A stretch of DNA of 64,000 nt from Octopus vulgaris. Taxonomy: Eukaryota. A program made the position numbers and the translations under genes. The stretch's first letter is position 1. The number at the start of each line of letters is the position of its first letter. The notes under the pieces are model-generated. The model was not told the DNA's origin, did no database searches, and saw nothing but the letters and a program-made list of their open reading frames with translations. Location of the stretch: the NCBI GenBank assembly GCA_951406725.2, contig OX597826.1, positions 43,400,001-43,464,000 of the forward strand, read 5' to 3'. This document shows positions 20,558 to 64,000 of the stretch, piece by piece.

Positions 20558-20832
20558 TTAGTTTCAAATTTTGGCACAAGATCAACAACTTCTGGAGAGG
20601 GGACAAGTCGATTACATCGACCCCAGTGTTCAGTTTATTTTTATTTTATCGATCCCGAGAGGACGAAAAGCAAAGTCAACTATGGCGGACTTTGAACTCA
20701 GAACTTAAAGACGGACGAAATACCTATTTCTTTACTACCCACAAGGGGCTAAACACAAAGAGGACAAACAAGGACAGACAAACGGATTAAGTCGATTACG
20801 TCGACCCCAGTGTGTAACTGGTACTTAATTTA
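20558..20832 (-). mobile_element. SINE family A composite (young T2 3' part joined to older T1 copy)
   Basis: Junction GAAATAG|GTATTTCGTCCGTC at ~20720. Confidence 0.75.
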
Positions 20833-21294
20833 TAGACACAGGTACATAACACGCACATACACACACACACACACACACACACACACATACATATATATTT
20901 ATTCGACGGGCTCCTTTCAGTTTCCGTTTACCAAATCCACTCACAAGGCTTTAGTCAGCTCGTGGCTACAGTCGAAGACACTTGCCTCAGGTACCACGCA
21001 GTAGGACTGAACTTGGAAGCATGTGGTTGGGAAACAAGATCTTAACGGGCAGTGGTTCCGACTGCTCGTCGCCTTAAATAAAGACATAACGAACAGAATG
21101 TGGACATGAGACCGAAAAGTCTTTTGGATTGAAAAAGTTGAAGACGGGCTACCTTTAACTTTTTCTAACCAGAAGTCATTTTTAAAATCAACTACTTACA
21201 TTCTATTATTCGTAGCTTTATTCGCTTCGATATTCACCGCTCGTAGACAGAATTCCCGTTCTCTCGAAATCAATACATTCTTATGACGTCTACT

Positions 21295-21592
21295 AATGGC
21301 CCAGTGGTTAGGGCAGCGGACTCGCGGCCGGAGGATCGCGGTTTCGATTCCCAAACCGGGCGTTGTGTGTATTTATTGAGCGAAAACACCGAAAAGCTCC
21401 ACGAGGCACCGGCAGGGGGTGGGAGGTGGCGACCCCTGTTGTACTCTTTCGCCCCAATTTTCTCTCACACTCTCTTCCTGTTTCTCGAGTAACGCTGCGA
21501 TGGACTAGCGTCCCGTCCACCTGGGGGGGGGGGGAACACACACGCCACAGAAACCGGGAAACCGGGCCTATGAGCCTGGATAGGCTTGAAAA
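21295..21592 (+). mobile_element. tRNA-derived SINE, family C head with V-domain-like tail
   Basis: TGGCCCAGTGGTTAGG...GGTTTCGATTCCC head as at 44232; tail CTGCGATGGACTAGCGTCCCGTCC...GCCACAGAAACCGGGAAAC. Confidence 0.75.
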
Positions 21593-21656
21593 GGGCGTAT
21601 AAATAAATAAAAATAAATATGACGTGTTTGGAATTGGGTTCGTGTGTTGAAGCATA

Positions 21657-21800
21657 TTCTGTTGTGTCTGGGGAGAGTCATTTTCTTTTTGTGCCGGTAA
21701 AATTTCCACTTATTTCTTATTTTTATTTTCCTAAAATTTTCGTTGGGTCTTGCAACCTTTTCAATAGTCAAGAAAATGACTCTCCTCGGACACAACATAA
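21657..21800. mobile_element. Tc1/mariner-type MITE
   Basis: ~29-bp TIRs TTCTGTTGTGTCTGGGGAGAGTCATTTTC / GAAAATGACTCTCCTCGGACACAACATAA flanked by TA. Confidence 0.65.
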
Positions 21801-60494: not shown

Positions 60495-61579
60495 CATTAT
60501 TCAGTTTGTTTCAAGATTTTTTGCCAATAGAGAAAGAATCGGATTCTAACTTAGATCCAAGGCTCCTTCACTGGAATTTCAACATCAACAACAGGGTATT
60601 TTTGTATGTATGTATGAGTGGATGTATATGTATGTGTAGATTTGTATGTTTTATGTATGTATTGTCATGCATAGAGTTGTACACCTAAATATGCTCATAT
60701 ACATTTAAATGATAAACTTCTGGAAAGTTTTACAGATTGTTACATCAAATGATGGATTGGATCTGTAGTCTTCGAATTAGCTTTCTCCTTTCTGGTTTTG
60801 AGAAGCCTAATTTCTCAAGATGGGTATTTAGGCCGTGTGTTACCTATCCCAGGGATCCAATAACTGCAAGTATAAACCTGGACTTCTAATTTGGATATAG
60901 TAACTGCATATTTCTTAATAGCTCAGCATAGGTGTACTCTTTTTCAGTGATCTTCAGCTTTATGTTAACATCTGCTGGGCAGCTAATTTCCACAACAGTG
61001 CACAGTTTCTCTTCTATATCCCAAATCATTATATCAGGTCTGTTGTGCTTACATTTTATTGGGGTGTTCACTGAGATATTCCACCAGGATCCCTTTATAT
61101 TAGTGGCTATGGCTTCTGCCATATTGTTGGTTCTTATTTCTTTGTCCTCGGGATTATCCTTTCCACGGATTTTATTATAGAGTGTCCTAGCTACAACATC
61201 ATGTCACATCGGTAGATGATACCGTGATGACATTTTCGGACAACTGCTTATGATGTGGGTGATATCTTCAGTGTGAACTCCACAAAGTCTGCATCGGTTG
61301 TCACATTTTACTGCTTTTCCTGCATCTCTATCCCTTTTGTGCATCAGGCACTTGGTTGATATTTCCTGTTCCTGGATCGCAAACGCATACCCTTCGGAGT
61401 GGGAGAGTAGTAATCCGGCTATTCGTCCATGATAAACTGCTCTGATGATCGATGTTACTATCATCACGGAGCTTTCTACTGATATATCTATGCATAATCT
61501 GCTCATATAGGCTCGTCTTTTCATCTGATGATACTATGCAGTTGAGCCATACGACTTCTTTGGGCATGTATTCTAAGTT
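60495..61579 (-). mobile_element. 5'-truncated R4/Dong-like LINE (RLE endonuclease) inserted in (TATG)n
   Basis: SEGYAFAIQEQEI...CRLCGVHTEDITHIISSC...HDVV...CKHNRPDIMIWD.EEK.CTVVEISCP (CCHC knuckle plus PD-(D/E)xK-type nuclease); (TATG)n on both sides. Confidence 0.88.
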
Positions 61580-62761
61580 ATGTATGTATGTATGTATGTA
61601 TGTATGTATGTATGTATGTATGTATGTATGTATGTATGTATGTATGTATGTATGTATGTATGTATGTATGTATGTATATGTGTGTGTGTTCATATGTATG
61701 AGTGAATGTGTTTGTGTTTGTTCCCGCCACTGGTTGATACCGCTATTAGTTTCTTTACATCTCCGTAAGTTCGTAGTTCTGAAAAAGTGTCCGATAAGGA
61801 TAAGCACCGAACTTAAATATAAGTACAGGGATTGATTTGTTACTACTAAAATCTTCAAGGCGTTGCTCCGAAATGGCTGCAGTCCAATGACTGAAGCAAG
61901 TAAAAGATAAAAGAGACATGCACAACTTAACTTGGCTGATTATTGGCTTAATCACTTTGTTAATCTCCAACGATAAGAAATAAATATTTTATACAACAGT
62001 TTAATGAAACTGATGGAATTTTATTTTTAATCTAATATGCTCATGTGATGAACTATTGGGATTAAGAATGCTGAATATTCAAAATGTTTGGGGAGACATT
62101 AAAAAGTGAAAAACTTGTACTTGTTTCATTTATTGGATAGCAGCTTTGCCGAAGGACCGCTGTGAAGGGTTTAGGCGAACAAATTGACTCCTGTAGTTAT
62201 TTATTTCTAAAGTCTGAGACATTTCTAAAATCTGCTCCAGCTTAGTTACGTGGACGTATACAACCTAACACCGGTTACCAAGTGCTAAGAGTAGGGGAAA
62301 TGCGAAGACAAAGACACAAACGTACACGCATACTTACACACACCATACATATACACGATGGGTTTCCTCAGTTTCCGTGGACAAAATTCACTCACAATGC
62401 CCGATGTTACAATGGAAGACACCTGCCCAAGGTGTCGCCCAGTAGGACTGAACACAAAATTATACAGTAGCAAAGCGAGATTCTTAAGTAGACAGCTTGC
62501 GCTTATATACAGATATTTAATATTCAAATACTTCAAGATTCTCAGTGTGAGCATACAATAGGAAGAATTCTCATTATTGATAACTACGAAGACTAATAAG
62601 TTCTGCTTGAGCAAAAATTCTGAATAGACAAGTAATTCAAAGATTTGTTGAAAGAACTGTTGATATAATGGCGGCGGAAAAAAAGTCAGTGATCTGGAAG
62701 AAGCGTTACTGCACCGGACAAAATGCTGCCCAGAATGTCTTCTTCCTTTGGGTTCTGGGTT

Positions 62762-62998
62762 CAAATACCTATTTCTTTACTACCCACAAGGGGCTACACA
62801 CAGAGGGAACGAACAAGGACAGACAAACGGATTAAGTCGATTATATCGACCCCAGTGCATAACTTGTACTTATTTAATCGACCCCGAAAGGATGAAAGGC
62901 AAAGTCGACCTCGGCGGAATTTGAACCCAGAACGTAGCGGTAGACGAAATACTGCTGAGCATTTCGCCCGACGAGCTAACGTTTCTGCCAGCTCGCCT
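62762..62998 (-). mobile_element. young SINE family A copy nested antisense in the B box of an older copy
   Basis: Flanked by near-duplicated TGGGTTCAAAT / TGGTTTCAAAT; the older plus-strand copy spans ~62690-63115. Confidence 0.8.
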
Positions 62999-63128
62999 GG
63001 TTTCAAATTCCATCGAGATCGAGTTCCTCTTTCATCCTTTTAAGATCGATAAGGTACAAGTTGAGCCCTGCGATTGTGATTGACTAACCCCTTCCCACGG
63101 ACTTCAGGACTTTTGCCTATTATTATGA

Positions 63129-64000
63129 AGGCGGCGAGCTGGCAGAATCGTTAGCACGCCGGGCGAAATGCTTAGCGGTGTTTCATCTGCCGCTACGTTC
63201 TGAGTTCAAATTCCGCCGAGGTCGACTTTGCCTTTCATCCTTTCGGGGTCGATTAAATAAGTACAACTTACGCACTGGGGTCGATATAATCGACTTAATC
63301 CGTTTGTCTGTCCTTGTTTGTCCTCTCTGTGTTTAGCCCCTTGTGGGTAGTAAAGAAATAGGCATTTCTTCTGGCTCTTTAAAATCATGAGTTCGAATTC
63401 CACCGAGGTCGACATTGCTTTTCATCCTTTGGGGTCGATAACTTAAGTACTATTCGAGCACCGGGTCAATGATATCGACTAACCACCTCCTTCAAAATTT
63501 CAGGCTTTGTGCCTATATTACGAAGACATTATTGCGAAAAATATGCGATGAGCTAGTGCTAGTAGAGTTGAAACGGCGCCGAATAAAATGTTTAGAAGCA
63601 ATTCTTCCGGATCTTTACGTTCTGAGTTCCAATGCCACCGATGTCAATTTTGCCTTTTGTCGTTTCGGGGGCAATAAAATTAAGTACCATTAGAGCAGTG
63701 GGTCAAAGTACTCGATTCCCCACCCGTCACCTAAAGATGGTTAACTTTGTATCAAAATAATAAAAAAGATTGTTTAGAAAAATCGAAAGGCAGAAAGCTG
63801 GTAGAATCGTTAGAGCATCAGGAAAATGCCGTGTGGAATTTCTTCCGGTCCTTTACGTTCTGAGTTCAAATCCCGTTGATGACAACTTCACTTTTCATCA
63901 TCTCAGGATCAATAAAATAAAGCTCCACTCAAGTACTGAGATTTGATGGGTTTAACTTATTTCCCTTTCCCTTAAAATTGCTGGCTTCGTGCCTAAATTC
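63129..64000 (+). mobile_element. cluster of SINE family A copies (T2/T1 composite plus two older copies)
   Basis: Heads at ~63130, ~63548 and ~63795; junction GAAATAG|GCATTTC at ~63361. Confidence 0.8.

Follow-up and report, generated by a model that had tools for sequence, protein, structure and literature searches.

RESULTS

A SINE family and its T2 ends in the window

We analysed 64,000 nt of Octopus vulgaris DNA (assembly GCA_951406725.2, contig OX597826.1, positions 43,400,001–43,464,000 of the forward strand; this whole stretch is the window, and position 1 is its first letter) and a family of short interspersed elements (SINEs) found in it and throughout the genome. The family unit is 231 nt long and consists of a head of 47 nt, a body of 119 nt and a tail of 65 nt termed T2; an alternative tail, T1, is carried by an older subfamily. 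Many T2 ends run directly into other copies of the family, a pattern that is real and genome-wide and for which self-targeted insertion, with a new head taking the place of the old, is the best reading. The family is short, non-coding and interspersed at high copy number, and the exact 24-mer of the T2 end has 59,934 matches in the 2.8-Gb assembly. A-box-like and B-box-like motifs were recognized by eye in the head and body; ARAGORN and Rfam each gave 0 hits. No stable fold was found in the head or the tail, the head folding no better than shuffled sequences (z = −0.87). Target site duplications (TSDs) of median ∼15 bp flank 36 of 88 solitary T2 copies, compared with 0 in shuffled pairs. The consensus has no run of four T, and the 231-nt non-coding unit encodes no endonuclease of its own. 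The body core may resemble the MetaSINE core. PMC13282606 leaves most octopus SINEs unclassified.

The ten T2 ends (GTAAAGAAATA) reported by the original prediction, which was made from the sequence alone, were all located, and start at 294−, 20735−, 23602−, 35648+, 35832+, 37148+, 51205+, 51387+, 62780− and 63350+. Six of them had been said to resume at one internal point, and six indeed resume after family nt 47. The layout head-body-T2-body-T1 that was proposed for all six holds for two (23818–23423, minus strand; 63130–63527, plus strand) and fails for the other four, because the units at 20725 and 51215 are 5′-truncated and headless, 35658 leads into another T2 unit, and 51397 is preceded by a T2 unit. 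The downstream body, described as often more diverged, is so in three of the six (12/88, 11/89 and 14/89 differences) and not in the other three (2/89, 3/89 and 4/89), as judged from the two complete upstream units, which differ at 3/89 and 4/89. Of the other four ends, two had been described as joins at other positions: the one at 35840 turned out to lie at a recurrent second site after nt 14 (junction 35842; 3,567 exact matches), and the one at 62764 is an antisense T2 insertion (62770) that hit the B box of an old copy and has a 12-bp TSD, 1 mismatch included. The ends at 277 and 37158, described as abutting non-SINE DNA, both belong to solitary copies; the former (284 in our coordinates) is also followed by GGTATTT, the start of a perfect 16-bp TSD. 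The copies and junctions in the window are as follows.

63130–63360, plus strand: young unit with head (A box), body (B box, core) and T2 tail; 3/89 differences at scored body columns
63361–63527, plus strand: old headless body and T1 tail, starting after nt 47 (GGCATTT here); 12/88 differences
23592–23818, minus strand: young unit with T2 tail; 5′ part of the head degenerate in the head alignment and possibly kept from the old copy; 4/89
23423–23591, minus strand: old headless body and T1 tail; candidate 9-bp TSD around the whole composite; 11/89
20725–20833, minus strand: 5′-truncated headless T2 unit, 5′ limit set by eye
20558–20724, minus strand: old headless body with an older, non-T1 tail; 14/89
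35427–35842, plus strand: head-body-T2-body-T2 with a 184-bp period and its junction at 35658/35659; 5/89 and 2/89
35843–36061, plus strand: old copy with the entry point at the second site, behind nt 14 (AGAATCG); 14/89
51151–51397, plus strand: truncated T2 tail, then a headless body-T2 unit (51216–51397); 3/89
51398–51562, plus strand: headless body and T1 tail, slightly diverged; 4/89
62770–63000, minus strand: solitary T2 copy, antisense in the B box of an old copy; 12-bp TSD, 1 mismatch
284–513, minus strand: solitary T2 copy; perfect 16-bp TSD beginning GGTATTT
36926–37158, plus strand: solitary T2 copy in non-SINE DNA, no TSD found

A fixed site genome-wide

Collecting the T2 ends of the whole genome with their downstream flanks, as the original prediction had proposed, revealed a strong site preference: 22,442 of the 59,934 exact ends, over a third and far more than chance would give, continue with GGTATTTC. 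Among sampled loci (86 loci and the window, with 4 overlapping loci dropped and 11 regions picked from the composite list), 139 of 236 classifiable T2 ends resume at nt 47, 5 resume at nt 14 and 80 were scored as non-SINE. A T1-type body follows a T2 end in 2,041 exact matches and a head in 967, the two anchors differing in mutability. An assembly artefact is unlikely, since at the contig level three other runs likewise pass from the T2 end into the body (60, 64 and 37 contigs). T2 copies also lie antisense in old family copies near the 3′ end of the core at three loci (L129, L204 and L074), and two of these (L129 and L204) share nearly the same TSD, which suggests a third, antisense hotspot.

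Ages of the joined units and of the enclosing TSD

For age estimates, CpG and diagnostic columns were masked and loci were grouped as 88 solitary T2 copies, 51 T2-ended arrays, 112 T1-ended composites and 108 solitary T1 copies, with 30 two-headed loci left out of the groups. The first body of composites differs from consensus by 3.6%, close to the 3.3% of solitary T2 copies, and beyond nt 30 the last body differs by 6.3%, compared with 6.5% in solitary T1 copies. In a paired test the first body was the younger in 37 composites, equal in 9 and the older in 15 (p = 2e-5). Hence the upstream and downstream bodies of T1-ended composites differ in age, as the original prediction had expected, and T2-ended arrays show no age difference between first and last body. 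Tandem duplication as the origin of T1-ended dimers was ruled out, as 76 of 89 have no private mutation common to both units. A single dimeric master, in which downstream bodies would share diagnostic mutations across loci, was ruled out as well: last bodies of the 112 composites have in common a mean of 0.20 private mutations per pair, no more than the 0.30 among the 108 solitary T1 copies.

One TSD encloses the whole composite, starting after the T1 tail. Mismatches were counted between its two copies in the distal part, beyond the first 6 nt, and amount to 43/419 in composites (10.3%) compared with 21/450 in T2-ended elements (4.7%; p = 0.0017) and 40/349 in solitary T1 copies (11.5%; p = 0.64 against composites). 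The outer TSD is therefore old, which indicates that the young upstream unit went into a locus already in place and that its head supplanted the earlier one.

Probable replacement of the old head

A single head is present in 109 of 112 composites (about 97%), and the old head still stands upstream in the other 3. A T2-specific head variant occurs in 28/112 composites and 24/88 solitary T2 copies, compared with 1/108 solitary T1 copies. The estimated old fraction is 0.03 for head nt 14–47 (confidence interval −0.32 to 0.27) and 0.29 for nt 7–14 (0.07–0.56), so that replacement usually reaches the 5′ end and sometimes stops short. The possibility that the old head was kept and only a body added was ruled out for most composites, since T1-type letters appear in the first unit of only 8/112. 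The downstream body is young over its first 13 nt and old beyond about nt 24; at nt 13–16 a group of T2-type letters is found in 17/112 composites compared with 1/108 solitary T1 copies. A young head thus lies between an old TSD and an old body, which means that the locus was rewritten. The proposal of self-targeted insertion that overwrites the old head is supported: the outer TSD and the downstream body are old, the head is young and of T2 type, and two-headed loci with fresh TSDs exist. We consider insertion into older copies of the own family to be highly probable, and replacement of the old head during insertion to be probable.

Two-headed loci carry marks of retrotransposition

The nt-47 site is followed by a new head within 14 nt in 157 matches, which include some tandem repeats at a single locus, compared with 3 and 6 at two control family positions. 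Among the 30 two-headed loci inspected, an old head lies upstream in 18 and a T2 end in 12. At least 4 of the 30 (L095, L097, L109 and L110) repeat locus-private bases on both sides as a 15–19 bp TSD, and at L410 only the last ∼14 nt of the tail are inserted, between copies of a 14-bp TSD with 2 mismatches. The two-headed loci and L410 are marks of target-primed reverse transcription at the nt-47 site, and the two-headed class with fresh TSDs shows real insertion there in a minority of cases. Two further loci in non-SINE DNA (L096 and L108) hold a partial head and a full T2 copy within one TSD, either by a template jump or as a truncated copy of a two-headed source. Head-only tandem repeats with a period of ∼65 bp and up to 8 matches occur at G000:C10:17996023–17996501, G000:C5:87874181–87875487 and L101/L102, and end near the site plus the length of a TSD.

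Composites might also form as RNA or complementary DNA (cDNA) and insert as a unit, by a switch of the reverse transcriptase from a T1 transcript to a T2 3′ end, from read-through RNA of many multimeric sources, or from a circular unit. One TSD around whole arrays, the young heads and the extra partial heads within one perfect TSD just described, which suggest template jumps or composite sources, are in keeping with this, and 14 of 45 composite TSDs are perfect, so that a minority of composites probably did move as a unit. Insertion as a unit predicts a young outer TSD, yet the distal TSD is as old as that of solitary T1 copies; moreover, the downstream bodies match the age of genomic T1 copies and not that of active sources, they lack shared mutations, and two-headed loci whose TSDs consist of private bases are left unaccounted for. 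As the general explanation it is quite unlikely.

Arrays of units

Arrays contain 2–11 units of 184 bp and terminate in SINE ends. Mutations of middle units recur in their neighbours in a staggered manner (L062, L086 and L089), which shows that arrays lengthen through local duplication of units. Many middle units consist of the last unit's 5′ half joined to the 3′ half of a unit earlier in the array. Judged from their sequences, middle units look like local duplications after the first event and not like separate homing events. The longest array sampled (L089, G000:C1:4672001–4682000) has 11 near-identical units ending in T1, possibly an incipient SINE-derived satellite. Distinct from the headless arrays are head-to-tail clusters, in which full-length copies often directly follow a T1 tail (23013–23819, 39837–40205, 54791–55449 and 63117–63999 in the window).

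Such staggered sharing is typical of unequal exchange, and events at the DNA level, either ectopic gene conversion with existing dimers as donors or a two-headed insertion that later lost the DNA between its heads, could in principle have made the composites themselves. They would leave an old TSD, two-headed loci exist, and 6/112 composites have T1-type letters in both the first and the last unit. Random crossovers, however, predict much old head and young sequence deep in the last body, whereas head nt 14–47 is about 3% old and the last body is old from about nt 24. We therefore regard an origin of the composites at the DNA level as very improbable.

Tail variants, the partner LINE and choice of site

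The insertion site differs between tail variants. Ends in GGGTA[G/A]T resume at nt 47 in 254 cases and at nt 14 in 3, compared with 2 and 14 cases, respectively, for GGGCAAT (p = 8e-19), and non-SINE flanks begin with GGTA in 29/78 of the former and 0/32 of the latter. The last ∼30 nt of T2 match the 3′ ends of 19 of 30 loci of zf-RVT long interspersed elements (LINEs) at a score of at least 37, and one LINE locus (L363) carries the Pfam domains RVT_1 and zf-RVT. This points to a partner LINE of putative L1/Tx1 type, a label drawn from the zf-RVT domain. An RTE partner, considered at first (PMC13295347), was dropped after the comparison of LINE 3′ ends. Among the 30 top-scoring LINE matches, 19 of them with the shared tail, none is followed by GGTA (0/30) and none lies at the nt-47 site (0/30), and LINEs are 0/20 of the other-tail matches at the site, a small sample. 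Four LINEs with a T2-like tail (L370, L375, L377 and L389) lie upstream of one shared sequence, which suggests a preference for another repeat.

A sequence-specific Tx1 endonuclease could pick the site for the same insertion into old copies, as in the crocodilian SINEU with Tx1-Mar, with RNA pairing playing a minor part. The T2 tail common to RT/zf-RVT LINE 3′ ends and the GGTA at the start of both copies of solitary TSDs agree with this, and two LINEs could serve the two tail variants. The zero counts of LINEs at the site stand against it, as does the choice of different sites and flanks by two SINE tail variants, and we consider a leading role for the endonuclease unlikely. RNA pairing is, on the evidence of the subfamily-specific sites and flanks, a moderately probable main guide. 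The original prediction had the transcript itself end in GGTATTT; solitary insertions give no support for this, because GGTATTT is present in both of their TSD copies and hence derives, in these insertions, from the target. A few solitary copies run 18–31 nt of body past the T2 end (L034 and L070). RNA polymerase III terminates at runs of T, and with no run of four T in the consensus, read-through past the T2 end is plausible. The tail-variant sites, the LINE flanks, the young start of the downstream body and the body extensions all fit an RNA extension that pairs with the target.

Other observations in the window

At 62424–62795, the match to an 886-nt contig (X13) from organism E breaks off at 62759, a little short of the antisense T2 insertion, while contigs of organisms B and C run into that insertion. 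In X13 (organism E), the depth of T2 ends relative to the body is far lower. Together these are a weak hint that the antisense insertion near 62759 and much of the T2 burst are absent in organism E. A second abundant repeat family, with two arms flanking a microsatellite, occupies 7603–7993, 14107–14523, 18109–18504 and 52578–52974.

DISCUSSION

A model for self-targeted insertion

We propose, with a probability of roughly 0.6, that a young subfamily that has its tail in common with L1/Tx1-type LINEs enters copies of its own family after nt 47 by LINE-driven target-primed reverse transcription, probably guided by read-through RNA, and that the cDNA likely replaces the old head by homology. At the T2 end, RNA polymerase III would not stop but run on into the unit that follows (GGTATTTCGTCTG...), so that T2 transcripts would be expected to extend into GGTATTTCG, and this 3′ extension would pair with the nicked target. 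The cDNA end, ∼47 nt of which are homologous to the old head, would then anneal there and displace the old strand; annealing to the old head would leave neither a second head nor a new TSD. In a minority of cases the outcome is an insertion with a fresh 14–19 bp TSD and both heads kept, and in a later step arrays grow by local duplication of units. Every family member would be a target and every composite a new source, a positive feedback. More tentatively, the family may be an RNA-guided self-homing SINE, in which the read-through 3′ end of each subfamily programs its own landing site within the family, while the promoter head of the old copy is rewritten from the cDNA, much as in a natural form of prime editing. 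Decayed copies by the tens of thousands would thereby have received fresh heads and become seeds of tandem arrays.

Several observations weigh against this model. Replacement of target letters by RNA letters was not found in the first 7 nt of solitary TSDs, where mismatches show no bias towards the RNA letter (4 vs 7, 39 loci), and the 3′ end and extension of the T2 RNA are inferred from DNA sequence. A LINE family targeted to the site may have been missed among the 30 top-scoring matches inspected. Fewer T2-ended arrays (4/51, p = 0.008) than solitary T2 copies (24/88) or T1-ended composites (28/112) carry the T2-specific head variant. The TSD age gap is kept in 3 of 4 parameter settings, with p = 0.09 under the strictest penalty, and for pure dimers alone p ranges from 0.013 to 0.11; a TSD is detectable in 45/112 composites, 14 of the 45 being perfect, and when the whole TSD is counted the mismatch in composites is intermediate (52/708, compared with 35/851 and 57/579). 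Most of the loci lie on a single chromosome, and exact motifs served to select them. Contigs of other runs showed no empty orthologous site, in a search whose output was swamped by paralogues and in which no contig bridged the 63360 junction.

Comparison with known systems

Alu has a self-insertion hotspot, with 15,759 sense insertions at Alu position 133 (Levy, Schwartz and Ast 2010, PMC2836564), explained by pairing of the RNA 3′ tail with the target between two nicks (PMC2836564). Like the octopus SINE, Alu inserts in sense at one position of its own family; however, nested Alu insertions keep the upstream part of the target and the guide is poly(A). In octopus, by contrast, more than a third of T2 ends take part, a unique stretch of the family would serve as guide, and a new head supplants the old. 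SINEU-3 with Tx1-Mar prefers one repeat (313/347) and forms tandem insertions (Kojima 2015, PMC4494074). A strong preference for a single repeat, tandem insertion and, putatively, mobilisation by a Tx1-type LINE are likenesses, but SINEU-3 targets a different element (Mariner-N4_AMi), has a TSD enclosed between its tandem copies and goes to the same target as its LINE. The octopus SINE shows the strong single-site preference of this type, and no LINE was found at its site (0/30 and 0/20, the small sample above).

Precise 5′ junctions are formed by annealing of cDNA in R1A elements of the melanogaster group, whose RNA has a target-homologous 5′ end (Stage and Eickbush 2009, PMC2718515). R1A insertion can also end with a TSD and duplicated upstream sequence (PMC2718515), which resembles the octopus two-headed class. 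A precise 5′ junction of the R1/R2 type is also found in octopus, where 109/112 composites have a single head and a new head stands with an old TSD, the annealing step being our proposal. R1A, however, is autonomous, has its own site-specific endonuclease and targets 28S ribosomal DNA; the octopus SINE has no endonuclease and is not a member of the autonomous site-specific families. Squamate SINE-derived satellites (Vassetzky et al. 2023, PMC10702118) and bivalve SINE multimers (PMC11481361) are tandem units of partial SINEs at interspersed loci with SINE termini at the array ends. Those arrays are attributed mainly to unequal recombination, and the available text describes neither a fixed self-insertion site nor head replacement, whereas octopus arrays are short, with at most 11 units in the sample, and probably start from a retrotransposition event. 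In the MetaSINE superfamily, which includes a cuttlefish member, a tRNA head is directly followed by a conserved core, the 66-bp Meta domain, and exchangeable tails (Nishihara et al. 2016, PMC4824008). The octopus SINE has a similar layout, with a putatively tRNA-related head, then a core and exchangeable tails; the available text describes no self-targeting for MetaSINEs. No description of the octopus system was found in the literature searched, and the available part of PMC4758252 contains nothing on one; subscription papers, Repbase/Dfam and supplements may name the family.

Implications

The target choice of a SINE is normally set by the endonuclease of its partner LINE and by a simple-repeat tail. 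If the read-through RNA of this SINE picks the site, a non-coding passenger could direct its own insertion, spare genes by settling in its relatives and renew old copies. The system provides a route, open to testing, by which dispersed repeats may become tandem ones, and its thousands of dated natural events can serve to study the 5′ joining of target-primed insertions. The head and body of one annotated copy can differ in age, a source of bias in repeat dating and in the use of SINE markers in this lineage.

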